The position numbers and the translations under genes were made by a program. A model generated the notes under the pieces. The model was not told the origin of the DNA. It did not search any database and saw only the letters and a program-made list of their open reading frames with translations. From a phage, in sequence record PZ871100.1: a stretch of 50,975 nucleotides of DNA; one strand, 5' to 3'. Of the stretch, positions 28,987-48,884 are shown piece after piece. Numbering within the stretch: the first letter of the stretch is position 1; each line of letters begins with the position of its first letter.

Positions 28987-28999
28987 TATTCATTCTCCA

Positions 29000-29042
29000 A
29001 TAGCATTTTTTGTTAAACGATGATTTAATGATTGTGTATTAT
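29000..29042 (+). promoter_or_regulatory. conserved-box promoter-like unit (box ATAGCATTTTTTGTTAAACG + 17 nt + TATTAT), helicase operon
   Basis: Box 29000-29019, -10-like hexamer 29037-29042; divergent from HTH gene. Confidence 0.55.
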
Positions 29043-29075
29043 ACACGCCAAATGGCATTACTCAAAGGTTTTAGA

Positions 29076-31121
29076 ATGATTCCAAACATTGAAAAGCAAA
29101 TATCAGCACTTGGCGAAGCGGTAATTAAATCCATTCAGGAGAGATTCACTGTTGGCGATATTGTGCCTTACCCTTACCAGTGCGTTGCATACGCTGAGAT
29201 CGCAAAGCGTATGAAAAATTATGAGCATCCATTCTTTGTTAAAGCGTCCGTATCTGCTGGCAAAACATTGATGTTTGCAATGGTTGCTCACCAGTGCCGG
29301 AAAATGGGCTTGAAAATGATGGTCCTTGCTCGCCAGGCTGAGATTGTAGATCAGGATTCTGAAGAGATAACAAATCTTGGTGTGCCGAACTCCATCTATT
29401 GTGCAGGACTGAAGACAAAAAGCGCATACTTTCCGATCGTTGTTGGTTCTGAGGGAACTGTAGTTAATGGACTGTTTAAAGCGCTTGGCGACTATGTTCC
29501 GCACGTTATCGGGATTGACGAATGTCACCAGGTGGATTGGGAAGACCTTGCCGACGCAATAGAGAAAGACGAATCATTTTTACAAATGACGACGAAGAAA
29601 GGCGAAAAAGTACCAAATCCAGATTATGACATAACAAAGGGAAGCAGGAACAGAAATACAGAGTTCCTGATTGGTGAGGATGGCTTGCCAATAGAGGGAA
29701 CAGGCCGCACACAATACACTGTCATTATCATGGAAATGATGCGCCGCTGCAGGAAAGCATATGGCCATGAACTGCGCATATTTGGCATGACTGGATCGGA
29801 GTTTCGCGGCGTAGTCCCGATCTTGGTAGAAGACAAAAAACAGAAAGGATTCTGGCGTGAACAGGTTACTAATATTGACACCAACTACCTGATCAAATTC
29901 GGTTCTGTTGTGCCAACAAATTTTGGCGACGTTGGCGATCTAGGGTATGACCTTTCAGAGTTTGAGGCATCCAGTGAGGATGGGGTTGCAGACTTTGACG
30001 CTAAAACGCTTCGCAGGATGGAACAAAAAATTCATGAAGAAGCGACCATGACAAAGCGCATCATGGCGAAAGTTCACGAGATCTGTAAAAACCGTAACGG
30101 CGTACTTGTGACATGTGCAGGAGAAAGGCATTGCAAAGAGGCTTCGGCGGCGTTGCCGCCTGGAACGACTTACAGGATCATTACTGGTAAGACTGGCGAT
30201 AACCAGCGCAAGGAGTGGTTGAAAGAAGCATACGAGGGAAAGGTTAAATACATCTTCCAGGTGCAGGCGCTAACTACTGGCGTTAACGTGCCGTTTTGGG
30301 ATACGTCTGTTATTCTGCGTAAGATTGGATCTCTTACGTTGCTGATTCAGCTTTTAGGGCGCGGAATGCGACTACTTAAGAAGTGGCATAAGGAGCAAGG
30401 ATTCCAGAAAGATGATCATCTCGTCATGGATTTTTCAGGAACGATGGACGAGCTGGGTGAGCTTTATTTTGATCCGATACTGGAACAGGCGCAGCACCAG
30501 AAGCGATTCAGAAATGGTAAAGATCCGAAGCCTTGTCCTGTTTGCGGAACTCTTAACAGCTATTATGCTCGTCGTTGTATGCACGTAGACGAAAACGGCA
30601 ACAGATGCGAGTGGTTCTTTAAATTCAGGACATGTGATGATCAGATTGACCCGCGCACTAAAAAGATTATTCATCGCGGTTGCGGAACTAAGAATGATAT
30701 TGCGGCCAGGGTATGCAGACATTGCGACATGTCATTGATTGACCCTAACGAGAAGTTAAGCGGAAAGCACTACACAAAAAACGACTGGTTCCAAGTGCAA
30801 TCTTTCGCGGTTGATATGACGAAAAACCAGAAAGGGATAATATTTAATTATGAGCTTTCCGATGGCATAGATACTTTCAAGGCGAGAGAGATATTTTTCC
30901 CTGAGTCTGAGAGCCAAATTTGCCGCGCAAAATGGCGAAGCGTTGCTCTTAAGCATATACCGGATCGCCGTGTCGCTGGTATGGTGGCGAGCTATCGCAA
31001 TGCGCGTAAAATCATGCAATATGTGAATCACATCATGCCGCCATCGCGTGTGACTCACCGCAAGACTAGCAAGGGCGAAGATAATTTGTACAAGAAGGAA
31101 TTTAATTATGGCAATGACTGA
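29076..31121 (+). CDS. SF2 helicase (DECH box) with C-terminal Cys-rich zinc-finger-like region
   Basis: Walker A-like SAGKTL, DECH motif GIDECHQ, C-terminal CPVCG...C...C clusters; start ambiguous (29052 or 29076). Confidence 0.75.
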   Translation: MIPNIEKQISALGEAVIKSIQERFTVGDIVPYPYQCVAYAEIAKRMKNYEHPFFVKASVSAGKTLMFAMVAHQCRKMGLKMMVLARQAEIVDQDSEEITNLGVPNSIYCAGLKTKSAYFPIVVGSEGTVVNGLFKALGDYVPHVIGIDECHQVDWEDLADAIEKDESFLQMTTKKGEKVPNPDYDITKGSRNRNTEFLIGEDGLPIEGTGRTQYTVIIMEMMRRCRKAYGHELRIFGMTGSEFRGVVPILVEDKKQKGFWREQVTNIDTNYLIKFGSVVPTNFGDVGDLGYDLSEFEASSEDGVADFDAKTLRRMEQKIHEEATMTKRIMAKVHEICKNRNGVLVTCAGERHCKEASAALPPGTTYRIITGKTGDNQRKEWLKEAYEGKVKYIFQVQALTTGVNVPFWDTSVILRKIGSLTLLIQLLGRGMRLLKKWHKEQGFQKDDHLVMDFSGTMDELGELYFDPILEQAQHQKRFRNGKDPKPCPVCGTLNSYYARRCMHVDENGNRCEWFFKFRTCDDQIDPRTKKIIHRGCGTKNDIAARVCRHCDMSLIDPNEKLSGKHYTKNDWFQVQSFAVDMTKNQKGIIFNYELSDGIDTFKAREIFFPESESQICRAKWRSVALKHIPDRRVAGMVASYRNARKIMQYVNHIMPPSRVTHRKTSKGEDNLYKKEFNYGND

Positions 31122-31527
31122 TAAAGGCGATTATCTGGAGTTTTACGAAAGAGATCCGACAGATACGCTAAAAGAGGAATCGCACCAGATCGGGGCGTTT
31201 CAATGGTTGACTTATGCATACCCTGAATTGCTGGCATGGCATACGAAAAACGAGGGCGACAAGGGGATCGCTACAGCAATGATGGATCAGCAAGCTGGGC
31301 TTGTTAAGGGCGTAAGTGATTTTATCATCCTGATTGGATTAAAAGGCCGTTACCCGTTCGCGGCAATTGAGATGAAGCGCGTCAATAAGTCCGGCAAGGG
31401 TAAGGCTTCACCAGTCAGCAAAGAGCAAAAAGCCTTCTTGCGACGTGTGCGTGAGCTTGGCGGATTCGCCGCCGTAACATACGGATATAAGCAATTCATG
31501 ATCGCTGTAGAATACATGATGAAATAG
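31108..31527 (+). CDS. VRR-NUC domain nuclease
   Basis: 139 aa; SDFIIL...AIEMKR...KEQKAF motif arrangement of PD-(D/E)XK VRR-NUC. Confidence 0.65.
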   Translation: MAMTDKGDYLEFYERDPTDTLKEESHQIGAFQWLTYAYPELLAWHTKNEGDKGIATAMMDQQAGLVKGVSDFIILIGLKGRYPFAAIEMKRVNKSGKGKASPVSKEQKAFLRRVRELGGFAAVTYGYKQFMIAVEYMMK

Positions 31528-31567
31528 CACTTTTTGTTAAAACAGGCGCGAAGGATTGCGCCATAAT
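31524..31567 (+). promoter_or_regulatory. conserved-box promoter-like unit upstream of Dam-like gene
   Basis: Box ATAGCACTTTTTGTTAAAAC 31524-31543, inverted repeat GGCGCG...CGCGCC in spacer, CATAAT 31562-31567; upstream stop TAG inside box. Confidence 0.6.
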
Positions 31568-31601
31568 AACACCAGTTCAACAAGCAACAGGTAATTAAGA
31601 A

Positions 31602-32303
31602 ATGAGCAAAGAAACCGAAGTGACATTTGAACAAATAGAACGCGAAACATTCATTGGCAATGCTCTTGCTACTGGTGGTCATTACCAGGCTGTTAAACCA
31701 AATCAATATTTCAAAGTGACTGGCAACCGCTATAACGGCAGCAATACGCCGGACGTTGTGCGCGATTTGTGGTCTACGCCGTCTGAGGTTGTCACATGGA
31801 TGGAAAGCGAATACGGTGATTATGACATCGACGCGGCTGCAAGCAAAGAAAATTCTGTATGTGAAAAATTCTACAGCAAGGAAACAAATTGCTTAAAGCG
31901 TTGGTGGGGTAGTAACAAGCATATATGGCTGAATCCGCCGTACAGCAATATAACGCCTTTCGTTAAGAAAGCGATTGAGCAAATGGAGCACAATAACCAG
32001 ATCGACATTCTGTTACCTTGCGACACATCTACAGGATGGTTTTATGAGGCACAACAGAAAGCAGCGGAAATTATCTGGATCACTGGCGAAGTTTATCAGG
32101 AGGAAGGAACAGAATATTCCCGCACAGGACGCCTTGCGTTTACCTCGGCTCTTACAGGTAAACCAGTGCAGGGCAACAACAAAGGAAGCGTTATTTTCAT
32201 CATGCGCGAACTTAAAGAAGGTGAGCAGCAGAAAACGCGATACGTTAAAATCAGCGACATTTGCCCTTCGGTGGCAGACCGTCGCGCACGGAAACGGAGC
32301 TAA
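31602..32303 (+). CDS. DNA N6-adenine methyltransferase (phage Dam-like)
   Basis: 233 aa; catalytic NPPYS motif (WLNPPYSN). Confidence 0.7.
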   Translation: MSKETEVTFEQIERETFIGNALATGGHYQAVKPNQYFKVTGNRYNGSNTPDVVRDLWSTPSEVVTWMESEYGDYDIDAAASKENSVCEKFYSKETNCLKRWWGSNKHIWLNPPYSNITPFVKKAIEQMEHNNQIDILLPCDTSTGWFYEAQQKAAEIIWITGEVYQEEGTEYSRTGRLAFTSALTGKPVQGNNKGSVIFIMRELKEGEQQKTRYVKISDICPSVADRRARKRS

Positions 32304-32307
32304 AGCC

Positions 32308-32565
32308 ATGCAAAAAGAAAGAAGCATTTATTTAAATGAAACTGGAAAGTGGTTGTTATTTCGCGCTATGGTATGCGATGCACTTGATAAAAACCCTAAC
32401 GTGAAAAAGATGATTGATTGCGATCCGTGGGAATTTTCAAGCGCATTAGATATGAGCTTTGAGGAGACAAAAAAACTACCGCTTGAAAAATGGAGCGAGC
32501 AAATCAGAAATGACATGCAAGAATTTGTCGATTCGTGGAATTTTCAGCACGGAATGATCCACTAA
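32308..32565 (+). CDS. hypothetical protein
   Basis: 85 aa from ATG 32308; stop TAG embedded in promoter box. Confidence 0.4.
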   Translation: MQKERSIYLNETGKWLLFRAMVCDALDKNPNVKKMIDCDPWEFSSALDMSFEETKKLPLEKWSEQIRNDMQEFVDSWNFQHGMIH

Positions 32566-32608
32566 TAGCACTTTTTGTTAAAACGCCCGACCTTGTGTCG
32601 GGCATAAT
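32565..32608 (+). promoter_or_regulatory. conserved-box promoter-like unit
   Basis: Box 32565-32584, spacer inverted repeat GCCCGAC...GTCGGGC, CATAAT 32603-32608, leader CATCAAAACGA. Confidence 0.6.
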
Positions 32609-32640
32609 TATTTCATCAAAACGAACAAGAGGAAAATAAA

Positions 32641-32820
32641 ATGGTTGTTTACGATCCACGCGCTTTTAAAATTGCTCAAGAAGTTTCACGCGAATCTGTT
32701 GCTGGCGGTTCGGTTAACGGCTATCAGTTTGATTGGTCGGCAGCAATGACCCTGCTTAAGGTTGCATATGGTCACGCGCCAATTGAAACAGCGGAGGAAT
32801 ATTATAAGCATGAAGGTTGA
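32641..32820 (+). CDS. hypothetical small protein (59 aa)
   Basis: Below ORF-track cutoff; ATG 32641 with AGAGGA RBS downstream of promoter unit. Confidence 0.4.
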   Translation: MVVYDPRAFKIAQEVSRESVAGGSVNGYQFDWSAAMTLLKVAYGHAPIETAEEYYKHEG

Positions 32821-33052
32821 ACAAGGTAGGCAGGCCGTATGGGATCACGCAAAGGAATGCGGGATAGCAGAAGACATAGCCAGGATAGCGAAATATTTTG
32901 ATATTGCTGACATAAGCATTATCAGCGGCGACAAAATGACATTTCTCAATGAACGACCGCGCAAGATGCATCGCGTACCAGCAATACCAACAAAGATTGA
33001 TTTCAAAGAGGCTATGGCGAAAATTCGCGAGCCGCGCAAATACTACAAATGA
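32810..33052 (+). CDS. hypothetical protein
   Basis: ATG 32810 with GGAGGA RBS; 80 aa. Confidence 0.4.
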   Translation: MKVEQGRQAVWDHAKECGIAEDIARIAKYFDIADISIISGDKMTFLNERPRKMHRVPAIPTKIDFKEAMAKIREPRKYYK

Positions 33053-33150
33053 GGATTATTATCATGTGGCGTTTGTTACTTTTGCCCTTACCTGTTATGA
33101 TGGCGATCTCTATTGTATATGTTGTCATAATGAGATAAGGAGAATTTTTG

Positions 33151-34266
33151 ATGAAGCAAATCAAAATCACAGATGAACAATTTATCAATGAGCGCAAGCA
33201 GGGAAAGACATATAAGCAGATCGCTAGTGAGTATGGCATGAACGTTCGCAGCATTGAGCGACGCGCGGCACGATTAGCAAAGCAAGGTAAAGTTACAACC
33301 ATCGGATCACCTGGTTTTGGTGTTACTGGAGAATCAAAGCTAATTGATAAAGATGGCAATGTGGTTATGACATGGATTAAGACAAGCAAAGACCGCGAAC
33401 AGTTAGAAGCATTAATGCAGGCCGCTATGGATGCATTTAGCGAAGAGGTTCCTCGACTTGATCCACAGCCAGAATCACAAAAGAATTATAGCGAGACGCT
33501 ATCACTGTATCCGATCTTTGACATGCACTTGGGCGCAATGGCGCATAAGCATGAATGCGGCGAGAATTGGGATACAGCAACAGCAGAGCGCGTAATGAAT
33601 AATTTCATTGATTATTCCATCCAGTGTGCGCCGGATAGTGAAAAAGCTGTTTTGCTGATTGGTGGTGATATGCTTCACAGCGACGGACTGGAAGCGGTGA
33701 CACCTGCAAGCGGTCACGTATTGGATCAAGATAGTAGATATGCAAAACTTGTTTATGTTGCCATCCGGTCAGTGCGTCGAGCAATTACAAAGCTGTTATC
33801 AAAACACAAAAACGTCGAGATTCAGATCATTGAAGGCAACCACGACCAAAGCGGCATGATCTGGTTGCGCGCAGCAATGGCGGCAGCATATGAGAATGAG
33901 CCACGAGTGCATGTTGATGTGTCTCCGCGAGTGGTTCATCACACACAATATGGCAAAACGTTCCTGGCATACCATCACGGGCATACTATCCGCAAACCTG
34001 AAACATTGCTAATGATGTGCGCGGCAGACTGGCGCGAAGACTTCGGCAATTCAAAAATGATGTATGCTCACGTAGGGCACTGGCATCATCAAACAGTAAC
34101 TGAAACAAGCCTGGGAATTGTTGAAGTGCATAGCACTATGGCGGCAAAAGATGCATATGCTGCGCGCGGTGGATGGCGTTCTCGTCGCCGTGCGGCTGTT
34201 ATTGTTTATGATAAAGAATACGGAGAAGTAGGGCGATTTATGCATTATCCAGAAATGGCTGGTTGA
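33151..34266 (+). CDS. HTH domain fused to calcineurin-like metallophosphoesterase
   Basis: N-terminal HTH-like KTYKQIASEYGMNVRSIERRAARL; phosphoesterase motifs DMHLG, GGDMLHSDG, EGNHDQ. Confidence 0.6.
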   Translation: MKQIKITDEQFINERKQGKTYKQIASEYGMNVRSIERRAARLAKQGKVTTIGSPGFGVTGESKLIDKDGNVVMTWIKTSKDREQLEALMQAAMDAFSEEVPRLDPQPESQKNYSETLSLYPIFDMHLGAMAHKHECGENWDTATAERVMNNFIDYSIQCAPDSEKAVLLIGGDMLHSDGLEAVTPASGHVLDQDSRYAKLVYVAIRSVRRAITKLLSKHKNVEIQIIEGNHDQSGMIWLRAAMAAAYENEPRVHVDVSPRVVHHTQYGKTFLAYHHGHTIRKPETLLMMCAADWREDFGNSKMMYAHVGHWHHQTVTETSLGIVEVHSTMAAKDAYAARGGWRSRRRAAVIVYDKEYGEVGRFMHYPEMAG

Positions 34267-34309
34267 ACTTTTAATCATTAAAATATAAATATAAATCATC
34301 AATTTAATT

Positions 34310-34339
34310 GGGCGTGGCATTTTGCTTCGCCCTTTTTTT
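34310..34339 (+). terminator. terminator-like hairpin before lysis cassette
   Basis: GGGCG...CGCCC hairpin then TTTTTTT. Confidence 0.5.
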
Positions 34340-34412
34340 ATTCCTTTTTGTGCGTTCAATGGTTAGGATACAATCAATTAATTGTTGACTTTTATCTACA
34401 GGAGATCTAATC

Positions 34413-34628
34413 ATGAAAGATTTTTTAAACGCTGCAACTTCCGGCACTGGCGGCGCGTCAATCACTGGCGCGGTAACTGGTCAAACAACTATTGCAATAG
34501 CCAGCTTCGTTTTGATGGCTGCATTTGGTATGTGGGGCGCTTATCTTCGCTGGCGTGATAGTAAGGCGCTACGTGACGCGCTTGAATGCGGTGATATTAA
34601 GAAAGCTATTGAGATCAGAGGTAAATAA
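34413..34628 (+). CDS. holin (putative, single TM)
   Basis: 71 aa; one hydrophobic helix; charged C-terminus; directly upstream of endolysin with ATGA overlap. Confidence 0.6.
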
Positions 34629-35116
34629 TGAGTATAAAACAAAGAGTGACAGCTGCGGCTTTTGGCGTTGCTCTTGCCCTTACTTCTCCGCTACTGGAGG
34701 AAATAGAAGGAGTAAAACATAAGCCGTACAAAGATATTGCTGGGATATGGACGGTTTGCGCCGGAATAACTGGACCTGACGTAATACCAGGCAAAACGTA
34801 CACACAGAGAGAGTGCGATGCGCTACTGGCAAAGCATATCAAGATCGCAAAGGATGAAGTTGATAAACGTGTGAAGGTTGAGATTCCTGATACAATGCGC
34901 GCAGCGATGTATTCATTCACATACAATGCTGGCACTGGTGCTTTTAGAAATTCAACCATGCTTAAGCTGATTAATAACGGTCGTTATATGGAAGCGTGCA
35001 ATCAGTTATGGCGATGGACAAAATACACCAATCCAAAAACAGGAAAGAAAGAAACGTCTAAAGGACTGCGCAACCGCCGCGCGGTGGAATTTAAATATTG
35101 CATTAAGGATCTGTAA
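34628..35116 (+). CDS. endolysin (phage lysozyme, GH24-like)
   Basis: 162 aa; [26 protein letters not shown] signature region. Confidence 0.8.
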
Positions 35117-35118
35117 TC

Positions 35119-35517: not shown

Positions 35518-35533
35518 CGCCTCCTTTATTTTT
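35508..35533. terminator. terminator at end of lysis cassette (convergent junction)
   Basis: GGAGGC ttaac GCCTCC then TTTATTTTTAT; spanin stop codon in loop. Confidence 0.55.
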
Positions 35534-35750: not shown

Positions 35751-35786
35751 GGTAACTTCCTTTTGTTGTTTCGTTTCGATGAAACA

Positions 35787-35830
35787 AATATACCCGATAC
35801 GAGATCGGGAGTTTTAACAAAAAGTGCTAT
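35787..35830 (-). promoter_or_regulatory. conserved-box promoter-like unit
   Basis: Minus-strand box (plus 35811-35830), spacer inverted repeat CCCGAT...ATCGGG, TATATT (plus 35787-35792), leader CATCGAAACGA. Confidence 0.6.
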
Positions 35831-35947
35831 TCAATACGCTTTACAGTAACCAACAAAACGCCGTCCTCATCACACAAATTATGCTCTGATATATCAAGCG
35901 CTCGCATGTCAGAATGAATGAGCGTTAACATTGCGTGCATGAAGTCG

Positions 35948-36340: not shown

Positions 36341-36342
36341 AA

Positions 36343-37926: not shown

Positions 37927-37953
37927 TGGTGATAACTCCTTTTTGATGCGGCA

Positions 37954-37997
37954 ATAATACCGCACCAATGCTACCCGCATTTAACAAAAAATGCTAT
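37954..37997 (-). promoter_or_regulatory. conserved-box promoter-like unit upstream of P-loop NTPase gene
   Basis: Minus-strand ATAGCATTTTTTGTTAAAT, 18 nt, TATTAT (plus 37954-37959). Confidence 0.55.
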
Positions 37998-38598: not shown

Positions 38599-38629
38599 CG
38601 TTTATTTCTCCTTTCGTTTCGGTGAAATG

Positions 38630-38673
38630 ATTATGCCAGGCTTTTACACCTGGCTTTTAACAAAAAGTGCTAT
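38630..38673 (-). promoter_or_regulatory. conserved-box promoter-like unit
   Basis: Minus-strand box (plus 38654-38673), spacer inverted repeat GCCAGG...CCTGGC, CATAAT (plus 38630-38635), leader CACCGAAACGA; methyltransferase-like stop TAG in box. Confidence 0.6.
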
Positions 38674-39999: not shown

Positions 40000-40029
40000 T
40001 ATGCAATCCTCATTATATTTGGTTTGGTA

Positions 40030-40072
40030 ACTATACCAGGTTTGAGAAATATTGTTTAGCAATTCGTGCTAT
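40030..40072 (-). promoter_or_regulatory. conserved-box promoter-like unit (variant ATAGCACGAATTGCTAAAC)
   Basis: Minus-strand box (plus 40054-40072), 18 nt, TATAGT (plus 40030-40035). Confidence 0.55.
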
Positions 40073-40649: not shown

Positions 40650-40680
40650 TTTTAAATCCTCGTTCGTTGTCGATGCGCTT

Positions 40681-40724
40681 AATATACCAATCAGAGGCGC
40701 ATAGGTTTTAACAAAAAGTGCTAT
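40681..40724 (-). promoter_or_regulatory. conserved-box promoter-like unit
   Basis: Minus-strand box (plus 40705-40724), 18 nt, TATATT (plus 40681-40686), leader CATCGACAACGA. Confidence 0.55.
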
Positions 40725-41153: not shown

Positions 41154-41186
41154 TTTTAAATCCTCGTATTCGTTGTCGATGTGTGT

Positions 41187-41230
41187 AATGTACAGGAATA
41201 CGAGGATTGAGTTTTAACAAAAAGTGCTAT
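41187..41230 (-). promoter_or_regulatory. conserved-box promoter-like unit
   Basis: Minus-strand box (plus 41211-41230), 18 nt, TACATT (plus 41187-41192), leader CATCGACAACGA. Confidence 0.5.
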
Positions 41231-42025: not shown

Positions 42026-42064
42026 TTGCTTTCTCCTGATTGGTATCTCGTTTCGATGTATGCA

Positions 42065-42107
42065 TTATGACAAATACAGTCAGGCACGTTTTAACAAAAA
42101 GTGCTAT
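42065..42107 (-). promoter_or_regulatory. conserved-box promoter-like unit (first of the minus small-gene block)
   Basis: Minus-strand box (plus 42088-42107), 17 nt, CATAAT (plus 42065-42070), leader CATCGAAACGA. Confidence 0.6.
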
Positions 42108-42402
42108 TTGCTGACTGGTCATTATTCCATATATTCCATTAATCAGGAATAACAGGAATAACTCATTCGCGATCACCTGGATTGGGAGACTTTGAGTTTG
42201 GTCAATTTTAATCAAGTGATTAACTTTTTGTGTGGAGGGGATAGAGAAACGCGATCCTCTCGCACCCTTTCCGGCAATCCTGGCGCGCAACATGTTCATT
42301 ATGTTTCCAGCCGTTCACGCAAATAAGCCTCCGCAGTTCTTCCACGTTTCATGCTGTCATGCACACAAAAGAAACAATGTAAAATCTATATAAATACACA
42401 TT

Positions 42403-42600
42403 AAATCAATAAGTTAGTTATATATGTATTTATATTTGTTTCTTATTGTTCTTGTTGTGTGATGGTTATTGGTATATGTTGCGATTTTTGTGTTGGTGGA
42501 TATTGATTGTTTATTGTTCGATTTGGTTGATGATTATGGTTGCTCATGGTTGCGTATGATTCTTGATGTATTTATGTATATATCCGCGAAAATTCGCGAA
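42403..42600. repeat. GT-rich noncoding element B (homolog of 20900-21050)
   Basis: 16-mer AAATCAATAAGTTAGT at 42403-42418, GT-rich tract, inverted repeat CGCGAA aa TTCGCG near 3-prime end. Confidence 0.6.
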
Positions 42601-42707
42601 CAGCCACACAGCCAAAAAACATGATGAGGATTCTTTTGAAATCATGCACTTAACTGCGAATTTTGTTTCCGCGCAATCTCCACACGTATAGCGAACAATT
42701 AGAACGC

Positions 42708-42737
42708 TTGACATAGGCGCGGCGTGGTGGCAACATT
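42708..42737 (+). promoter_or_regulatory. possible sigma70-like promoter (perfect TTGACA, weak -10) with adjacent inverted repeat
   Basis: TTGACA 42708-42713; weak -10 CAACAT/AACATT about 17-18 nt downstream; GGTGG...CCACC inverted repeat overlaps. Confidence 0.3.
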
Positions 42738-42774
42738 GCAACCACCAAAAACAGAGCAAATAGGAGTTACACCC

Positions 42775-43236
42775 ATGACCATGACAAGCAAGGAATTTTG
42801 CGATATGTTGCGAGTTAATGCAGCCTCACTAGCTAACGGGGATGTTAGCGAACTGCAAATCAAGGAGCTTGACTTGCAATGTAATATTGCGCCGGAAGAC
42901 TTGAGGAAAATTAACGCCTCATACATCCGAACGATTATGAATCGAACGCCGGAGGTGAAAGCCGTTGGCGTGGTGAAGGTTGAACGCGTTCGAGGCGATG
43001 CTGACATTCCTGATTGTTATCGCGTAACAATTAACCAGAATCCAAAGCGCCGCTTGCTGACAGATGAAGAACTGCCAAAACTTGAAAGTAAGTGGCGAGC
43101 AAAGTTTATTGCTCAACTGCTTAAAACACAGCCGCGAATCAGCGATCTGGAAGGTGAGCGCCTGGAAGGTGCGGCAATCGCACTTGAGCGAATGAATGAA
43201 ATGCTTAACGATATGGTAAAGATGGAGGATGAATAA
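42775..43236 (+). CDS. hypothetical protein (first gene after noncoding region B)
   Basis: ATG 42775 with AGGAG RBS; 153 aa. Confidence 0.45.
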   Translation: MTMTSKEFCDMLRVNAASLANGDVSELQIKELDLQCNIAPEDLRKINASYIRTIMNRTPEVKAVGVVKVERVRGDADIPDCYRVTINQNPKRRLLTDEELPKLESKWRAKFIAQLLKTQPRISDLEGERLEGAAIALERMNEMLNDMVKMEDE

Positions 43237-43496
43237 TGACTAAGGCATTAATTGGAGTTTTGATTGCAATCGCTACCCTGACCGGATGCGAAAAGGCATC
43301 GGAATCAACGGTTGTAGCAGGCGTGGAGTCAGATTTCAAAGTCGGTCGCCTGTTCACTGTTGACGGATGCACAGCATACAGATTCTATGATAACGGTCGC
43401 GCGATCTATTACACCAATTGCAAAGGCGCAACGAATAGCACGCGCAACAGCGGAAAGTACATAATGCACCAGCAAGTCACAACAGATATTGAATAG
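43236..43496 (+). CDS. small lipoprotein (second Cor/Llp-like candidate)
   Basis: 86 aa; signal peptide and lipobox LTGC; GGAGG RBS; TAATG overlap. Confidence 0.5.
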   Translation: MTKALIGVLIAIATLTGCEKASESTVVAGVESDFKVGRLFTVDGCTAYRFYDNGRAIYYTNCKGATNSTRNSGKYIMHQQVTTDIE

Positions 43497-43536
43497 CACT
43501 TTTTGTTAAAACGCCAGGTGCGAATCCTGGCATAAT
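43493..43536 (+). promoter_or_regulatory. conserved-box promoter-like unit
   Basis: Box 43493-43512, spacer inverted repeat GCCAGG...CCTGGC, CATAAT 43531-43536, leader CATCGAAACGA. Confidence 0.6.
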
Positions 43537-43569
43537 AGCCTCATCGAAACGAGATTGAGGAAAACAAAA

Positions 43570-43755
43570 ATGGCACGTCGCATCACCAAAGACCTTAAAG
43601 TCCTGAACAAAGAAAACGTAGTTAAAATCCTGGTTATCTGGGGATACAACGAAGAAGCAGCAAAGCAGAAGGTAGAGGCAGGTTATGACCTGGCTGTAAA
43701 AGCAATGCCAAACGACGACGCAAAAGGCATTGCAAACTATGTGGCTTTCTTTTAA
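43570..43755 (+). CDS. hypothetical protein
   Basis: 61 aa from ATG 43570; GAGGAAAA RBS after promoter unit. Confidence 0.4.
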   Translation: MARRITKDLKVLNKENVVKILVIWGYNEEAAKQKVEAGYDLAVKAMPNDDAKGIANYVAFF

Positions 43756-43770
43756 TTAGCAGGTGAATAA

Positions 43771-43956
43771 ATGAAAACGAAATTAGTCCATAAATCAGAA
43801 ATCAAGATCGGCGATACTGTGATTCACAACGGCGAGCTTAGAACGGTTGGCAAAGAGTCAATAAGCCACGATGAATTTATGGGGATCTTGTTGTTCGGTG
43901 ACTCTTATCGTCTTGGTTATAAAATGGTTGAGCTTGTGGAAGAGGTAAAATTCTAA
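43771..43956 (+). CDS. hypothetical protein
   Basis: 61 aa; RBS AGGTGA. Confidence 0.4.
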   Translation: MKTKLVHKSEIKIGDTVIHNGELRTVGKESISHDEFMGILLFGDSYRLGYKMVELVEEVKF

Positions 43957-44000
43957 ATAGCACTTTTTGTTAAAACTTAAAAACGATAACCAGGCATAAT
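43957..44000 (+). promoter_or_regulatory. conserved-box promoter-like unit
   Basis: Box 43957-43976, 18-nt spacer, CATAAT 43995-44000. Confidence 0.55.
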
Positions 44001-44054
44001 AAATCACATAGGGCGGCACGGCGTCGCCCGGTAAACCAATCAGGAGAAAGCACC

Positions 44055-44945
44055 ATGTTAAAACTTGCTGACATTAAATTCCCGATCACCTTCGAATCTC
44101 GCGGCGTTGGTCATTTCATGTTTACCGATGAGAAGACATGCACTAAGTTTAACGAATACGGAAGTCCAAACGCTTCAACAATGGAGGTTGAACACTTCAT
44201 TGAAGCGCACAATAAACACTACAACTCACTCAGAGACTACGGTTACGCAATGCCAGGATACACATGTTTTCACTACAAGCCATATAAGGGTCAGGTGTTA
44301 CCAGTGCGCTCACCGGAACGCGCAGAGATTCCGATGGTCAATATGAAAACGTGCGACTATAAAAAATTGTGGTGCTTAAGCGTGGATAACATCAAGTATC
44401 CGATCGTATTCCGCACGGTTGGTAACTCAACGATTCGCTATACGTCACCAGACAACGGCGTTTATAGCGATGGTCAGAAATCAGAGTTGAAAGTTGATTT
44501 CTTTGTCAATGGTCACAACAAATTCAATCCACACAATGAAGAAGATAAGGTGTACTACGTGGAAGATATTACAAAACACTTGTTTGGAGAAACACCATTC
44601 GGCTACGGGAAGACGTCAATTCAACAAATCATTGGCGAGGAGATCCACAAGGCAGCCGTTGAAATGAAAGCGCCTGGAGGCTGGCGTATTGATAAGAGCG
44701 CCTTTGCTTATCAAGAAATCGTAACGCAGGGCGCTATTGAAGACATGCCAGTTGCCGCCACGCTAAAAGGCGTTCAGCTTGATGACGGCGTGTGGTATGA
44801 ATTAACAGCTAAGCCAAAGACGATCGAGATTCATGATGATGTTGTTATTCTTCTGCTTCATTACGGTAGCGCAAAAAACCGTGCCGTTGCTGGCGAGATT
44901 AGCATCAAGCGCGGAACGATGGTTAAGTGGAAGGTGAAAGTGTAA
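44055..44945 (+). CDS. hypothetical protein with internal tandem duplication
   Basis: 296 aa; two similar ~100-aa segments (IKFPITFESRGVG / IKYPIVFRTVGNS; EHFIEAHNKH / DFFVNGHNKF); AGGAG RBS. Confidence 0.5.
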   Translation: MLKLADIKFPITFESRGVGHFMFTDEKTCTKFNEYGSPNASTMEVEHFIEAHNKHYNSLRDYGYAMPGYTCFHYKPYKGQVLPVRSPERAEIPMVNMKTCDYKKLWCLSVDNIKYPIVFRTVGNSTIRYTSPDNGVYSDGQKSELKVDFFVNGHNKFNPHNEEDKVYYVEDITKHLFGETPFGYGKTSIQQIIGEEIHKAAVEMKAPGGWRIDKSAFAYQEIVTQGAIEDMPVAATLKGVQLDDGVWYELTAKPKTIEIHDDVVILLLHYGSAKNRAVAGEISIKRGTMVKWKVKV

Positions 44946-44988
44946 ATAGCACGAATTGTTAAAACTCAAATGTGGGGCCAGGTATAAT
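44946..44988 (+). promoter_or_regulatory. conserved-box promoter-like unit (variant box ATAGCACGAATTGTTAAAAC)
   Basis: Box 44946-44965, TATAAT 44983-44988 inside inverted repeat GGCC...GGCC. Confidence 0.55.
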
Positions 44989-45018
44989 GGCCTCACTTTC
45001 AATGAAGGAGATAAAACT

Positions 45019-45249
45019 ATGTACATTAACAAGAAGATGAAATGCATTTCCGTTAACTATGGTTGCGCTGGCATGTTCAAGCCTGGCGAAATCTATATGG
45101 CGCAAAAGTTGAAATCATCAACCGGATCCTTTTACGTTAGTAATAGTAAGGGGCATCGCATGTTCCTGAACGGTGGTGAAGGTACTAATGTTATGGCACA
45201 CGCTATGGTAATTGCTGAATTTGAGGAAGTGAAAGATGAAAACAAATAA
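45019..45249 (+). CDS. hypothetical protein
   Basis: ATG 45019 with AAGGAG RBS after promoter unit. Confidence 0.4.
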   Translation: MYINKKMKCISVNYGCAGMFKPGEIYMAQKLKSSTGSFYVSNSKGHRMFLNGGEGTNVMAHAMVIAEFEEVKDENK

Positions 45250-45457
45250 GCGCGTCAAGCACAGGTTTACTGATAACCACGGCGACGCGATCGATGTATA
45301 CAAGTTCGGCGATCGCGTTTTTATTGACGGCACGTTTGAAGGTGGGAGCAGTCCGGATTTTAGGTCGATACTCACCGTTGACCAGGTGCGAAAGCTGGCG
45401 GATAAGTTAAATGATCTGGCAGATGAAATCGAATACAAGCAAATTCATTTTAATTGA
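45236..45457 (+). CDS. hypothetical protein
   Basis: 73 aa; GAGGAAG RBS. Confidence 0.4.
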   Translation: MKTNKRVKHRFTDNHGDAIDVYKFGDRVFIDGTFEGGSSPDFRSILTVDQVRKLADKLNDLADEIEYKQIHFN

Positions 45458-45468
45458 TAGGTTTGATA

Positions 45469-46008
45469 ATGAAAAAATACGAATTTGAACTTTGGGGCAG
45501 CAAATACCATTTTTCAACGAGCAAGCCGATTGTTATCGTTGACCTGGACGGAACGTTATCAGACGGAACGCATCGCTTACACCTTCTTCCGACAGAAGAT
45601 TTGCACCTTACAGAAAGCTGGTCTGAGTTCAATAAGGCGGCTGTTGGCGATTCGCCGATTAAGAGCACGGTTGCAGTGGTTAACGGTTTGTGGATGTCAG
45701 GATTTGCCATCGTTATCCTGACCGGACGCAGCGATGAAGTGATGGAGGACACCTGCAAATGGCTTAACGAAAACGGCATCAAGTACGATGCGTTAATCAT
45801 GCGCCGCAAGGAAGACAATCGCAAAGACACAATAATCAAAGAGGAAGTCTTGCGCGCTATCGGACTGGAAAACATTGTGTGCGCTTTTGATGATTCTCCG
45901 AACGTGGTTAAGCACTTCCGCAGCCTGGGAATCACAACCTATCAGGTAACGGAATACGACAAGCCACATAATCATATCCAATCGCATGGCGTGGAGGAAT
46001 TGAAATGA
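45469..46008 (+). CDS. HAD-superfamily phosphatase (nucleotidase or polynucleotide 3-phosphatase-like)
   Basis: Motif I IVIVDLDGTL (DxDxT), later ILTGR and FDDSPN motifs. Confidence 0.6.
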   Translation: MKKYEFELWGSKYHFSTSKPIVIVDLDGTLSDGTHRLHLLPTEDLHLTESWSEFNKAAVGDSPIKSTVAVVNGLWMSGFAIVILTGRSDEVMEDTCKWLNENGIKYDALIMRRKEDNRKDTIIKEEVLRAIGLENIVCAFDDSPNVVKHFRSLGITTYQVTEYDKPHNHIQSHGVEELK

Positions 46009-46166
46009 CATGGATTCTATTTGTGATTATCACAAGCTACAATTCAGCCGCAATTGAGTCTCGCGAGTTCCACGGTGAATCAAGATGTCAGGCCGCGAGA
46101 GAGCAAGTAATTTTGCATATGTCAGATAACGATAAAGAAGTTGAAGTATTCTGTGTTCGTAAATAG
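46005..46166 (+). CDS. hypothetical small protein (53 aa, hydrophobic N-terminus)
   Basis: Not in ORF track; ATGA overlap with phosphatase stop; stop TAG inside promoter box. Confidence 0.35.
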   Translation: MTWILFVIITSYNSAAIESREFHGESRCQAAREQVILHMSDNDKEVEVFCVRK

Positions 46167-46206
46167 CACTTTTTGCAAAAACAGATTATCGGGCTTGCTG
46201 TATAGT
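46163..46206 (+). promoter_or_regulatory. conserved-box promoter-like unit (variant ...TTGCAAAAAC)
   Basis: Box 46163-46182, TATAGT 46201-46206, inverted repeat GGGCTT...AAGCCC. Confidence 0.55.
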
Positions 46207-46236
46207 AAGCCCATCTACAAAAACGAGGATTAAATC

Positions 46237-46500
46237 ATGGTTAATAAAGTTGAGTTTTTCAAAGCGGTAGACAAGATTGACGGCGCGCCAAGTTTCTTTG
46301 CTATCCATTCCATTGACGGCGAAGACGTTGCATACAACGTGATTAGTCGAGACGGTATATCAAAACTTAGTGACCTGGTGGGTTATATTGTGGCGAACGG
46401 GAAATGTGCATGGCCCGATTCACCACGAGAGCCGCGCCGCCGCGACATGCAAAATCCAGTTCTGCTTTACACTCTGGTAATTGAAGGAGTCAACAAATGA
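46237..46500 (+). CDS. hypothetical protein
   Basis: 87 aa; GAGGA RBS after promoter unit. Confidence 0.4.
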   Translation: MVNKVEFFKAVDKIDGAPSFFAIHSIDGEDVAYNVISRDGISKLSDLVGYIVANGKCAWPDSPREPRRRDMQNPVLLYTLVIEGVNK

Positions 46501-46682
46501 TTTGGTTACTTGTATTTTTAGTGGTTTTCTTTTATATTTCAGGCTTATTCATCTTCCGAGCGCTGGTGAAAACATGCGATTGCACTGATAAAGATCAGCC
46601 TCTTGTTCTGATGTTCTGGTTTGTGTGGTTTTGGGTGGCGCTTTACCAGATTGTACGGGATGAAAGCGGCTTTAAGTGGTGA
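46497..46682 (+). CDS. small membrane protein (2 predicted TM)
   Basis: 61 aa; two hydrophobic helices; ATGA overlap. Confidence 0.4.
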   Translation: MIWLLVFLVVFFYISGLFIFRALVKTCDCTDKDQPLVLMFWFVWFWVALYQIVRDESGFKW

Positions 46683-46876
46683 TTCTTACTATAGCGCATT
46701 CACGCAGTGCGCTATGTTGAGATAACAACATGAGATCATGAAGATGCGAAACTTCGAAAAAATCGTATCCAAGAAGAAGCGATACAGCTACTACGAGCAC
46801 CAAGAGATGAATCAACGCTATCGCAAAAAGCGCCAGCGAAAAGGTAAAAATTCCAGTAAACATGGAGAAAATCAAT

Positions 46877-47467
46877 ATGAAACGCGACATTATCATTCTT
46901 AACGGACCGCCAGGAGTTGGCAAAGATACGCTTGCGGCATACTTAACTGGCCATCGTTACGCAGCCGTTAAAGCGTCGTTTAAGCAACCGATGTTTGATA
47001 TTGCATTCTCCATGCTTGGCGTTTACCTATATGACGAGTTCATTGATCTGTATAACGACCGCGAGCAGAAAGAAAAGCCTCAAGCAATCTTGCAAGGCAA
47101 GTCTCCGCGACAATTCATGATCTGGATTAGCGAAGAAGTCATGAAGCCAGCTTTTGGCGAGCAATATTTTGGGAATCGCATGGTTGAGCAAGTACACGAG
47201 ATGTACAGAGATTTAGCTGTTGTAATTAGTGATGGCGGATTCCCTGAAGAAATCAAACCGCTCGTTAAGGCAGGCCATGAAGTGCACATTTGCCGACTGC
47301 ATCGCGAAGGATTCACGTTTGATGGCGATTCGCGAAACTATATTGACCTGAACGGATACCATCACCGAGTCAAGCATTACGACTTCACAATGATTGATGG
47401 CGAGCCAGAAAAGACTGTTGACGAGATCATCAAAACGGTGCAGTGGAAACACACAAAGATTGAATAG
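46877..47467 (+). CDS. P-loop nucleotide kinase (dNMP kinase or polynucleotide kinase-like)
   Basis: ATG 46877 with GGAG RBS; Walker A NGPPGVGKDT. Confidence 0.55.
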   Translation: MKRDIIILNGPPGVGKDTLAAYLTGHRYAAVKASFKQPMFDIAFSMLGVYLYDEFIDLYNDREQKEKPQAILQGKSPRQFMIWISEEVMKPAFGEQYFGNRMVEQVHEMYRDLAVVISDGGFPEEIKPLVKAGHEVHICRLHREGFTFDGDSRNYIDLNGYHHRVKHYDFTMIDGEPEKTVDEIIKTVQWKHTKIE

Positions 47468-47507
47468 CACGAATTGCTAAAAGCGGGGCGCAATGCCTCG
47501 CTATAAT
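47464..47507 (+). promoter_or_regulatory. conserved-box promoter-like unit (variant ATAGCACGAATTGCTAAAAG)
   Basis: Box 47464-47483, TATAAT 47502-47507. Confidence 0.55.
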
Positions 47508-47537
47508 GCAAACACCAATCAACGAGAGGAAATCATC

Positions 47538-47939
47538 ATGGTAGAGTTAAACAACATCCGCATTGGAACAAAATTTCGCGTAACCTGGGCAGATAAATAT
47601 TGCGGAGTTAGCAAGGGCCAGGTTGTTACTGTGGATAGTATTTATCGCGGATGCAGCAAAGACTTTCGCCGCCCACGCATCACGAATGGCTATATCATTA
47701 CTCGCCGTTTTGGCTTTGATCATTATTGCGTAGTGGCGACTCAAGGAGTTTTGATTGAGCTTCAGCGAATCAGCGATCATCGCGGCTGTCATGTCAAAAC
47801 AACGAAGATACCATCTCAGCGATCGCGATACGATGCGCGCAGGATGCGCAGGCTTGCACGAAACGCGATCAAGTTCAAAAAGCATGGTGGTAACTTTTAC
47901 CGAATGTACAAAGGGATTGCGCGAAATGCTGGAAAATAA
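47538..47939 (+). CDS. hypothetical protein (basic C-terminus)
   Basis: ATG 47538 with GAGAGGAAA RBS after promoter unit; 133 aa. Confidence 0.4.
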   Translation: MVELNNIRIGTKFRVTWADKYCGVSKGQVVTVDSIYRGCSKDFRRPRITNGYIITRRFGFDHYCVVATQGVLIELQRISDHRGCHVKTTKIPSQRSRYDARRMRRLARNAIKFKKHGGNFYRMYKGIARNAGK

Positions 47940-48057
47940 CAACAACGCAACAAATCCAAAGCCGCCATTTGATTTTCATGAAATCATGATTGTGTTATTC
48001 TTGATTCTCTTAGTTGTTTATTCAGTGAGGGCCGCAATATGGTTTTTAATGCACTAA
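47926..48057 (+). CDS. small membrane peptide (43 aa)
   Basis: Not in ORF track at this start; hydrophobic helix IMIVLFLILLVVYSV. Confidence 0.25.
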   Translation: MLENNNNATNPKPPFDFHEIMIVLFLILLVVYSVRAAIWFLMH

Positions 48058-48302
48058 AACGAATCTTTAAACCTGAATACCGGATCGTTGCTTGCACAGA
48101 ATGCAAGATTTATTATCTGCAACGCCGCCGCGTTATTAGTGGGGATTGGGAATATCTGACTGATGATGCTTTCGGCTTTTGGGCTATGGAGTTCAATAGC
48201 TACAGCGAAGCGCGTGAATACGCTAAAAAGTTGCACAAGTTCAGACCTTACAAGCTGCGTTTGCTGGTTGTCAAAAAATGCGATGTGTGGGATCACGAAT
48301 GA
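48039..48302 (+). CDS. hypothetical protein
   Basis: 87-aa ORF. Confidence 0.35.
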   Translation: MVFNALKRIFKPEYRIVACTECKIYYLQRRRVISGDWEYLTDDAFGFWAMEFNSYSEAREYAKKLHKFRPYKLRLLVVKKCDVWDHE

Positions 48303-48478
48303 AAAGAGTAATTATCATTTTTATTGCCATTATCGCTGGTTGCTACCTGGCTTATAATTATAGCGGCATTGTTGAGTCAATCGGCGGATTGATTATCTTC
48401 ATGGCTGGCGGGTATGCTGGCTATTGTGATGGATTCGAAAACGGAAAGCGTTACATGCTGACCGGAAAAAAGAAGTAA
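48299..48478 (+). CDS. small membrane protein
   Basis: ATG 48299 in ATGA overlap; two hydrophobic segments. Confidence 0.35.
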   Translation: MKRVIIIFIAIIAGCYLAYNYSGIVESIGGLIIFMAGGYAGYCDGFENGKRYMLTGKKK

Positions 48479-48521
48479 TGTTAACCGCGCCGCTTCGGTG
48501 GCGCTAAAAGGAGGAAACAAA

Positions 48522-48809
48522 ATGGCTAAAAGCAATCGTAAAATGTTGATTAACGCATTCGAAAAGGCGGCGCTTGAGCGTGGTTGGAATGACTCATTTC
48601 ACACAGCAAACTGTATCCGCCATTACGGATTCAAGAATTGCCGATCCTGGGCGCGTGAAATGGCTTCATGGTATGATCTTGATGCGCATTACCTTGATAT
48701 GGATTGCGCCCTTGTTGAAATGATTGAGCAGGCCGCACTAGAGGATCGACCATTAACGCAATCTGATTTTGACGATTTTGTGCGCGATGAAATTTATTAT
48801 ATGAGCTAA
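48522..48809 (+). CDS. hypothetical protein
   Basis: ATG 48522 with AAGGAGG RBS; 95 aa; stop adjacent to promoter box. Confidence 0.4.
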   Translation: MAKSNRKMLINAFEKAALERGWNDSFHTANCIRHYGFKNCRSWAREMASWYDLDAHYLDMDCALVEMIEQAALEDRPLTQSDFDDFVRDEIYYMS

Positions 48810-48852
48810 TAGCACTTTTTGTTAAAACTTCCGCGAGGGCATTTGTTAAAGT
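48809..48852 (+). promoter_or_regulatory. conserved-box promoter-like unit
   Basis: Box 48809-48828, 18-nt spacer, weak hexamer TAAAGT 48847-48852, leader TTGAAGCGAAACAGAGGAAA. Confidence 0.45.
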
Positions 48853-48884
48853 GTCCTCATTGAAGCGAAACAGAGGAAATCAAA

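Follow-up and report, generated by a model that had tools for sequence, protein, structure and literature searches.

Predicted -35-less promoters of a T1-like phage carry a repeated box with the sequence and class II geometry of a marbox

Class II promoters of the activators MarA, SoxS, Rob and RamA carry a forward activator site that overlaps the -35 region and is centred near -41; they have no recognisable -35 hexamer, and region 4 of sigma70 is displaced onto the activator (PMC10268841; PMC8811837; PMC12052159). The 20-nucleotide (nt) marbox/soxbox consensus is AYNGCACNNWNNRYYAAAYN (PMC2064960), and a 15-nt form of the marbox derived from chromatin immunoprecipitation sequencing reads gcannwwntgnnaaa (PMC12052159). 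The subject of this work is a 20-nt box that recurs, together with a -10 hexamer at a fixed distance, in the 50,975-base phage sequence PZ871100.1, which is called the window here and means the whole stretch of DNA that was analysed. The same element is already described: the 2024 re-annotation of phage TLS reported a 21-nt direct repeat with the consensus aaATAGCACnnnTTGnTAAAA, present in 18 intergenic copies that follow the direction of transcription about 76 nt 5' of start codons, and found also in T1, Rtp and Rogue1, with TTT, GAA and AAA subgroups (PMC11447400). The authors of that work identified just three promoters that resemble those of sigma70; for the repeat they proposed stoperators, enhancer sites or UP elements, and they listed its function as an open question (PMC11447400).

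The window comprises the complete genome of a T1-like siphophage that belongs to the genus Hanrivervirus (Drexlerviridae, Tempevirinae). Long stretches of it are 94-98% identical to phages aaroes, JakobBernoulli, pSf-1 and SFP17, and its gene order is colinear with that of the annotated BASEL phage JakobBernoulli. The structural genes lie on the plus strand at about 1-20.5 kb; between 29 and 49 kb there are genes for replication, methylase and lysis as well as many small genes in divergent clusters. The box of the window fits the T1/TLS-type repeat, for which about 18-21 copies per genome are expected: it matches aaATAGCACnnnTTGnTAAAA, runs in the sense of transcription and starts 71-82 nt before the ATG, that is 20+18+6+(27-38) nt. 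The same boxes are labelled repeat_region in the record of Citrobacter phage Stevie. The box itself is already published as a repeat, and its link to a -10 hexamer and to the marbox is new and absent from the TLS paper. In the literature, no transcript-mapping study of T1-like phages was found, nor anything that links the marbox, Rob, MarA or SoxS to these phages.

By sequence comparison the box is a near-perfect E. coli marbox in class II promoter geometry, which is the new claim made here. It reads A-T-A-G-C-A-C-n-n-W-T-T-G-Y-T-A-A-A-A-C, fits the 15-nt form perfectly and fits AYNGCACNNWNNRYYAAAYN except at position 19, which is usually A and is Y in the consensus. Perfect matches to the 15-nt form number 21 in the window, 20 in T1, 19 in TLS and 14 in Rtp, against shuffle means of 0.8-1.9 (1.8 for the window), and matches to AYNGCACNNWNNRYYAAAYN with at most one mismatch number 21, 21, 21 and 16 in the same genomes, against about 1 in shuffles (0.9 for the window). 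The variation among boxes is confined to the degenerate positions of the marbox, namely -42 and -41 (A or T, the WW of the consensus), -37 (C or T, its Y) and the free position -43, while GCAC at -47 to -44 and AAA at -35 to -33 are invariant. The marbox of the mar operon, ATGCCACGTTTTGCTAAATC as taken from K-12, agrees with the phage box at 16 of 20 positions, and the micF box ACAGCACTGAATGTCAAAAC has 15 of 20 bases in common with it, including the AAAAC end.

The placement of the box is also that of class II sites. Measured in the K-12 sequence, the gap between the 20-bp box and the -10 is 18 bp in micF (-10 TAGAAT), 17 bp in fumC (AATAAT) and 19 bp in rfaY (TAAAAT), in agreement with the tabulated site positions of -41 for rfaY and -39 for fumC. 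The phage box spans -50 to -31, with its 15-nt core centred at -40. When the window is scored against the published marbox consensus it contains 23 boxes with 0-2 mismatches each, 20 of which are followed at a gap of 17-18 nt by a qualifying hexamer, defined by A at position 2, T at position 6 and a match of at least 4/6 to TATAAT. The gap is 18 nt in 16 of these 20 cassettes and 17 nt in the other four, and all 20 are oriented as micF, with GCAC distal and AAA proximal to the -10. Among 101 consensus hits in four genomes, the best hexamer offset is 18 nt in 58, 17 nt in eight and 19 nt in three, and the background for a qualifying hexamer at any one offset is 2.3%. Positions -35 to -30 read AAAACn, with at most 3/6 matches to TTGACA, so that there is no -35 hexamer. 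An earlier note on this DNA had described the 17-18-nt spacing and the lack of a -35 at the right distance, and both descriptions are borne out.

The -10 consensus is TATAAT-like, with G at -14 in 45 of 58 cassettes and an extended -10 TG in about half. Past the hexamer, at a distance of 6-7 nt, there is a predicted start signature of C at -1 followed by A at +1 (A in 52/58), and most cassettes continue from the predicted +1 with an A/C-rich leader AUCGAAACGA(A/G) at +1 to +11 (for example at 43543-43553 and 42047-42057), which may be a translation-enhancing or processing signal. All the sequence features of a class II MarA/SoxS/Rob (RamA) promoter were found together: the marbox match, its forward orientation, its position and gap, and a canonical -10 with a predicted start and no -35. 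Canonical sigma70 promoters are not enriched over 28-48 kb (29 found, 40 expected). It is well supported that the cassettes are promoters of sigma70 type with a -10 and no -35, in which the box would replace -35 recognition; at the level of sequence this reading is strong because the geometry is fixed, a start signature is present and the ribosome-binding site follows at a constant distance. The corresponding proposal of the earlier note stands in this part, and a UP element or a phage factor, which it named as the reader of the box, is less likely for the reasons given below.

The cassettes share with the class II MarA/SoxS/Rob/RamA promoters of micF, fumC, rfaY, lpxC P2 and inaA a forward, asymmetric 20-bp marbox over the -35 region, centred at -40/-41, a gap of 17-19 bp, the lack of a recognisable -35 and a canonical -10 and start. 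They differ in that the phage boxes are far nearer to the consensus and to one another than chromosomal marboxes are, in that the phage packs about 20 of them into a 51-kb virulent genome for most of its non-structural genes, and in that most phage cassettes carry a stable hairpin in the spacer or around the -10.

The cassette is repeated in the window and conserved in the family. Matches to ATAGCACnnnTTGnnAAAA with at most two mismatches number 22 in the window, against 0.78 expected from shuffles, and the cassette does recur on both strands of 28997-48855, as had been noted. Sixteen copies lie inside that interval; the previous count of at least 17 is reached if the box at 28510-28529, just outside it, is included. 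Seven boxes are found outside the interval, at 2087+, 6361-, 10121-, 16017+, 20786-, 22276+ and 28529-, and relaxed scans gave no further credible copy in the window. The ATG follows the hexamer at 27-38 nt in most copies and at 54 nt in one, in line with the short distance first described. The upstream gene ends with a TAG inside the box in at least eight copies of the interval as judged by the ends of open reading frames (31524, 35830, 37997, 38673, 40724, 43493, 46163 and 47464), where at least ten had been claimed, and in several additional copies the upstream stop codon abuts or overlaps the first base of the box. The earlier observation of stop codons within the box is upheld. The scan of related phages that the earlier note proposed was made by one procedure on seven Drexlerviridae genomes of several genera, namely the window, T1, TLS, Rtp, Klebsiella phage KP36, Citrobacter phage Stevie and Cronobacter phage ESP2949-1, and found 9-18 cassettes in each; the same scan found zero cassettes in lambda and T7. 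A weight matrix trained on T1, TLS and Rtp only recovered 19 cassettes of the window. In the divergent Cronobacter genome the ATA prefix that is specific to coliphages drifts and the marbox core stays fixed.

It is probable, on balance, that a host activator, MarA, SoxS or Rob, or RamA in Klebsiella-type hosts, reads the box and replaces -35 recognition. Each cassette would be a sigma70 promoter of the class II MarA/SoxS/Rob type, with a forward marbox (recognition element GCAC at -47 to -44, AAA at -35 to -33) sitting where the -35 hexamer would be. A monomer of the host AraC-family activator would bind the box and hold RNA polymerase by contacting sigma region 4 as well as the alpha C-terminal domain; the candidates are the constitutive Rob, the inducible MarA or SoxS, and RamA in Klebsiella, Citrobacter or Salmonella hosts. 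The -10 hexamer, which lies 17-18 bp further downstream and in many cases has an extended -10 TG, would be read by region 2 of sigma70, and transcription would start at the conserved A 6-7 nt past the hexamer, giving a leader of about 20-30 nt to the start codon. About 20 such cassettes would drive nearly all non-structural gene clusters on both strands. The same host factor may repress the capsid and regulator promoters through reversed marboxes, and replicating phage DNA, by titrating the factor, could help to bring about the early-to-late switch. To our knowledge, all host genera concerned are Enterobacteriaceae that encode these activators. A reader related to MarA and encoded by the phage was looked for and not found: Pfam scans of 30 non-structural open reading frames detected no AraC/MarA-like protein, a tblastn search of MarA against 50,697 phage records gave no Drexlerviridae among the matches listed, and the best local tblastn hit of MarA had E = 0.63.

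Several points weigh against a host reader. Cells that are not under stress contain little MarA and SoxS, and most of the Rob is sequestered when inducers are lacking (PMC2787020; PMC10268841), yet T1-like phages multiply very well in standard laboratory culture. We know of no host-factor screen that implicates rob, marA or soxS, though threefold redundancy could mask these genes. The boxes are conserved beyond the consensus, with A at position 3 and T at position 11 nearly invariant in coliphages, which could reflect another reader or a recent paralogous spread, and at position 19, a Y in the consensus, most boxes have A, as micF also does. About half of the cassettes have an extended -10 TG and might be active without any activator, with a basal activity that may be substantial, and the conserved canonical promoter before the Cro-like regulator described below is, as a sequence pattern, what would be expected of an activator made early. 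The proposed binding and activation by the host protein rest wholly on sequence.

The only conserved DNA-binding candidate of the phage is a 157-amino-acid regulator with a single Cro-like helix-turn-helix, encoded at 28513-28986 on the minus strand. Its gene has a canonical sigma70 promoter at 29038-29065 on the minus strand (TTGAGT, 16 nt, TATAAT), the best of the region with a score of 9-11 of 12, which forms a divergent switch at 28987-29076 with the cassette of the helicase gene at 29000-29050 on the plus strand (marbox 29000-29019, ATAGCATTTTTTGTTAAACG; 17-nt gap; TATTAT 29037-29042; predicted +1 at about 29050). The two -10 hexamers overlap on opposite strands with an offset of 1 nt, and the mRNA leader of the regulator is the reverse complement of the box of the helicase cassette. 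This layout is found in all seven genomes, the arrangement of the 29000+ cassette being kept in T1, TLS, Rtp, KP36, Stevie and ESP2949-1. The predicted recognition helices of the regulator read SQQTVNQW, SNQTVQGW, NLKTVWGW, TPQAVEEW, SIQVVQQW and SMGTVQQW, over an invariant box core. A small palindrome, GCCAAATGGC, lies within the switch at 29047-29056 and varies in sequence among the phages; it was rejected as a repeated operator, not being enriched (7 hits, 5.4 expected). The regulator was also seen to carry an invariant N-terminal basic motif, DKRTINGNNGTRRGKDKKxRKR, at residues 13-36 and a conserved C-terminal motif with cysteines, GFRASFCRPDLxFDxNGKPLxxRC, at residues 106-129.

The second canonical promoter is that of the major capsid gene, an extended -10 sigma70 promoter at 6337-6364 on the plus strand (TTGCAC, 16 nt, TGcTATCAT). 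A reversed marbox at 6342-6361 on the minus strand, which has no usable -10 of its own, overlaps its spacer and -10. T1, TLS and Stevie retain the pair of promoter and reversed box, which is degenerate in KP36 and missing from Rtp. The capsid and regulator promoters are the only two canonical sigma70 promoters that are conserved, and each overlaps a reversed marbox, which fits a single factor with a dual role as activator and repressor; by analogy, the same factor could hold the capsid promoter down early. MarA represses hdeA, purA and rob through overlapping sites, and these three genes are listed as MarA targets. A reading of the reversed boxes as class I marboxes for the downstream genes was rejected, because the start codon is too near (47 nt at 6361 and 14 nt at 10121).

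Most cassettes contain a hairpin. The interval from -30 to +14 folds with a mean of -10.9 kcal/mol, against -6.0 kcal/mol for random windows of the same length from the same genomes (Mann-Whitney p ~2e-16), and 46% of cassettes reach -12 kcal/mol or below, against 6% of random windows. There are two layouts. In one, the T-rich hexamer and discriminator come after a stem-loop that lies inside the spacer, and in T1, KP36 and G29-2 several such hairpins carry a terminator annotation; in the other, the -10 hexamer sits between the two arms, of which the 3' arm ends at -1. Arm sequences vary from copy to copy yet stay complementary (for example 48829-48872, 46183-46226 and 32585-32628), and most have no U-tract. 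Covariation in a fixed register was tried and rejected, as the maximal z of 3.5 over 820 column pairs is about what chance gives and no single register emerged. An RNA begun at +1 lacks the 5' arm, so the full hairpin would form only in read-through RNA. With low confidence, the hairpins may insulate the promoter or stabilise the 3' end of the upstream transcript. In the window, T1, TLS and Rtp, the interval that separates the primase gene from the regulator gene has a true terminator with a T-run, in which a cassette is nested. In the window this cassette lies at 28479-28529 on the minus strand, with the marbox at 28510-28529 and TATCAT at 28486-28491 in the hairpin loop, followed by a T6 run, and the layout is repeated in T1 at 35995-, in TLS at 35240- and in Rtp at 34831-.

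The reader could instead be a phage protein, either the Cro-like regulator, a serious rival as an activator made early, or an unrecognised small early protein. The regulator would be made first from its own promoter (29065 to 29038), would activate the box promoters from the class II position and would shut itself off through the reversed box in its leader. Its gene does adjoin a box in all seven genomes, it has the strongest canonical promoter of the region and a leader complementary to a box, the coliphage boxes are conserved past the marbox consensus, and the partial dyad TAGCA-N5-TG(C/T)TA centred near -42 could suit a dimer. A host reader is nevertheless favoured because the predicted recognition helix of the regulator varies among phages while the box core is constant, because C-44, the AAA at -35 to -33 and the strict orientation are unsuited to a symmetric dimer, and because an unrelated protein would have to converge on the consensus, degeneracy, orientation and 17-19-bp gap of the marbox. 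The helix-turn-helix is, moreover, single and Cro-like and not of the dual AraC type, and repression of the capsid gene through the reversed box by such a protein would presumably give capsid expression in the wrong order, on early and off late, so that a phage-encoded reader appears unlikely. T4 middle promoters, to which the cassettes had been likened, are also multi-copy -35-less sigma70 promoters of a virulent phage in which the activator takes the -35 region and sigma region 4 is displaced, and the comparison is sound in function. It does not extend to sequence, position or factor, since the MotA box (TGCTTtA; (a/t)(a/t)(a/t)TGCTT(t/c)A) is centred at -30, 11-13 bp from the -10, whereas the phage box is unrelated in sequence and lies near -41, 18 bp from the -10, and MotA and AsiA are phage-encoded whereas the reader here is probably a host protein. 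The middle and late promoters of Mu have a Mor/C site at about -43 (dyad near -43.5) and no -35, and their activation needs contacts with the alpha C-terminal domain and sigma region 4. The activator site is in a comparable position of -35-less promoters, but Mor and C are phage-encoded dimers on dyad sites, whereas the dyad here is partial (TAGCA-N5-TGyTA), the AAA and C-44 are asymmetric and there is no Mor/C homolog; the Pfam scans of the 30 non-structural open reading frames detected no MotA, AsiA or Mor/C domain. A dimeric operator of the lambda cI or CRP kind (TAGCA-N5-TGCTA at -42) was rejected because the same asymmetric features and the match to the marbox account better for the pattern, and the marbox consensus itself contains GCA-N5-TG. 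The arms TAGCA/TGCTA also match the arms of the Lrp site YAGHAWATTWTDCTR, but the centre of the box misfits it, little Lrp is present in rich medium and the match to the marbox is far more complete.

A promoter that needs no activator at all is much less probable still. The cassettes would then be extended -10 promoters for the plain sigma70 holoenzyme, with the box as a UP-like element for the alpha C-terminal domains or a DNA-shape element. The frequent G at -14 (45/58), the TG in about half of the cassettes and the good -10 hexamers agree with it, as do the T-run and A-run of the box, which resemble TWTTTTnnnAAA, and the TLS authors had raised the UP idea; like the UP elements of rrnB P1 and the T5 early promoters, the box would be an upstream element with A/T-runs that raises promoter strength without a dedicated activator. 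The UP consensus of Estrem et al. 1998 is reportedly nnAAAWWTWTTTTnnnAAAnnn, made of A/T only, located at -59 to -38 and read by the alpha C-terminal domain. The box, in contrast, lies at -50 to -31, about 8 bp downstream of those positions, is specific in orientation and has as its most conserved bases G-47, C-46, A-45 and C-44, of which the invariant G-47, C-46 and C-44 are not UP-like; its central T-run is freely swapped for GAA, AAA or TAA, and half of the cassettes have no TG. About as improbable, or slightly more so, is a box that is no promoter element: a roadblock or stoperator, a decoy for host MarA/SoxS/Rob, or an intercistronic terminator or RNA-processing signal together with the hairpin. 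The boxes do stand at gene ends and are oriented with transcription, as the TLS authors remarked of stoperators, the hairpins after them are stable and in several cases annotated as terminators, and three boxes of the window have no usable -10. This reading leaves unexplained the 18-nt relation to the -10, the C/A start signature and the constant spacing to both the ribosome-binding site and the ATG; most hairpins have no U-tract, and the first promoters of both divergent clusters (42107- and 29000+) have no upstream gene to terminate. A decoy role would be compatible with promoter function and is no true alternative. Stoperators of the type of mycobacteriophage L5 are asymmetric repressor sites, oriented with transcription and standing in no fixed relation to promoter elements, that block elongation in a temperate phage with a repressor; the box is like them in orientation and intergenic placement and unlike them in its fixed 18-nt relation to -10 and start and its occurrence in a virulent family. 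Two further candidates were tried and rejected. Compared with a sigma54 -24/-12 promoter (TGGCAC-N5-TTGC), in which GG and GC stand exactly 12 nt apart and a -10 hexamer is lacking, the box reads TAGCAC-N3-TTGC, which is 2 nt short and has AG in place of GG, and it has a sigma70 -10 at a fixed distance; the TTGTTA in the box, taken as a displaced -35, is too far from the hexamer at 22 nt.

After the divergent switch, the next cassettes on the plus strand are that of the Dam methylase gene at 31524-31574 (marbox 31524-31543, 18-nt gap with a hairpin, CATAAT 31562-31567, +1 at about 31574) and a cassette at 32565-32615 (marbox 32565-32584, spacer hairpin GCCCGAC/GTCGGGC, CATAAT 32603-32608, +1 at about 32615). 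On the minus strand, the leftward small-gene cluster has its predicted first promoter at 42057-42107 (marbox 42088-42107, TGtCATAAT 42064-42069, +1 at about 42057). Also on this strand are cassettes at 41180-41230 (marbox 41211-41230, TACATT 41187-41192, +1 at about 41180), at 40674-40724 (marbox 40705-40724, TGgTATATT 40681-40686, +1 at about 40674) and at 40023-40072, where the marbox 40053-40072, ATAGCACGAATTGCTAAACA, has 0 mismatches to the 20-nt consensus and is followed by a 17-nt gap and TGgTATAGT at 40030-40035. The cassette at 38623-38673 (marbox 38654-38673, TGgCATAAT 38630-38635, +1 at about 38623) has a spacer hairpin, GCCAGG/CCTGGC, whose counterpart is annotated as a terminator in phage G29-2. 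The cassette of the 527-amino-acid helicase gene lies at 37947-37997 (marbox 37978-37997, TATTAT 37954-37959, +1 at about 37947), and another lies at 35780-35830 (marbox 35811-35830, spacer hairpin, TATATT 35787-35792, +1 at about 35780).

Six plus-strand cassettes lie beyond 43 kb. Those at 43493-43543 (marbox 43493-43512, TGgCATAAT 43531-43536, +1 at about 43543) and at 47464-47514 (marbox 47464-47483, a GAA variant, TATAAT 47502-47507) have a spacer hairpin. The cassette at 43957-44006 (marbox 43957-43976, CATAAT 43995-44000) is without a hairpin and has the longer leader, with its ATG 54 nt past the hexamer. At 44946-44995 the marbox (44946-44965) is again a GAA variant, the gap is 17 nt and TATAAT at 44983-44988 lies in the loop of a GGCC/GGCC hairpin. 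The hexamer is bracketed by a hairpin at 46163-46213 (marbox 46163-46182, TATAGT 46201-46206, arms GGGCTT/AAGCCC) and at 48809-48859 (marbox 48809-48828, TGtTAAAGT 48847-48852, arms GAGGGC/GTCCTC), and the latter cassette is identical in TLS at 6478 and in Stevie at 47545.

Among the boxes at lower coordinates, two cassettes have 0 mismatches and a 17-nt gap, namely 22276-22324 on the plus strand (marbox 22276-22295, ACAGCACAAATAGCTAAACA, TGtTATAAT 22313-22318) and that of the Cor-like lipoprotein gene at 20736-20786 on the minus strand (marbox 20767-20786, TATAGT 20744-20749). A well-formed cassette antisense to the tail genes lies at 10071-10121 on the minus strand (marbox 10102-10121, TAGCAT 10078-10083, +1 at about 10071) and is conserved in T1 at 18850- (about 18790-18850 on the minus strand). 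Within 10040-10121 it runs straight into the bidirectional terminator of the major tail protein gene, so that its predicted RNA would be only about 35-40 nt long. Besides the reversed box at the capsid promoter, two boxes on the plus strand have no hexamer at the right gap. One, at 2087-2106, lies between the large terminase and portal genes, where a strong terminator hairpin, AAGGCTGG/CCAGCCTT, with a T-run was observed directly after it (2087-2150). The other, at 16017-16036, is a variant, ATAGCACAAAAGGTGAAAAA, which overlaps the ribosome-binding site of the J-like tail tip gene and is kept in TLS at 24908 and in Stevie at 16265.

Two other regions were noted. Between the two divergent small-gene clusters, an AT-rich, gene-free stretch at 42360-42600 contains imperfect inverted repeats of 40 nt as well as degenerate direct repeats; it may serve as an origin, in packaging or in early control. 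A lone TTGACA lies at 42708-42713, just 5' of the DUF7174 gene. The 372-amino-acid 'DNA repair exonuclease' (33148-34266, plus strand) has sub-threshold hits at residues 11-47 to HTH_28 (E = 0.002) and to sigma70 region 4 (E = 0.012), and the same weak N-terminal similarity is remarked in the KP36 record.

Beyond the reading of the single box by a host activator, a wider proposal is that Drexlerviridae have handed almost all early-promoter recognition to MarA/SoxS/Rob/RamA, with stress-wired expression, repression through reversed marboxes, a titration timer and insulation by hairpins, and this is held only tentatively. Phage expression would then be tied to the bile, oxidative and antibiotic stress state of the host, and strains in which mar, sox or ram is constitutively activated would make better hosts. 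The factor would be titrated by the hundreds of marboxes on replicating DNA, which would act as a copy-number timer for the early-to-late switch, and each promoter would be shielded from read-through by its nested hairpin.

T1-like phages are classic contaminants in laboratories, occur commonly in the gut and in sewage, and are candidates for therapy against E. coli and Klebsiella. The compact cassette, which combines a stop codon inside the box, a promoter that holds a hairpin and a short leader, is a ready-made part for synthetic biology. If the box is a marbox, the question of repeat function left by the 2024 TLS paper becomes directly testable. If this holds true, these would be a rare case of virulent phages that use a host stress activator for most of their early genes, and not strong -35/-10 promoters or a factor of their own. 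Phage yield would be linked to regulators of clinical multidrug resistance (marR, soxR and ramR mutants), suggesting predictable interactions between phages and antibiotics, and the same resistance regulators up-regulate TolC, the receptor of some of these phages.

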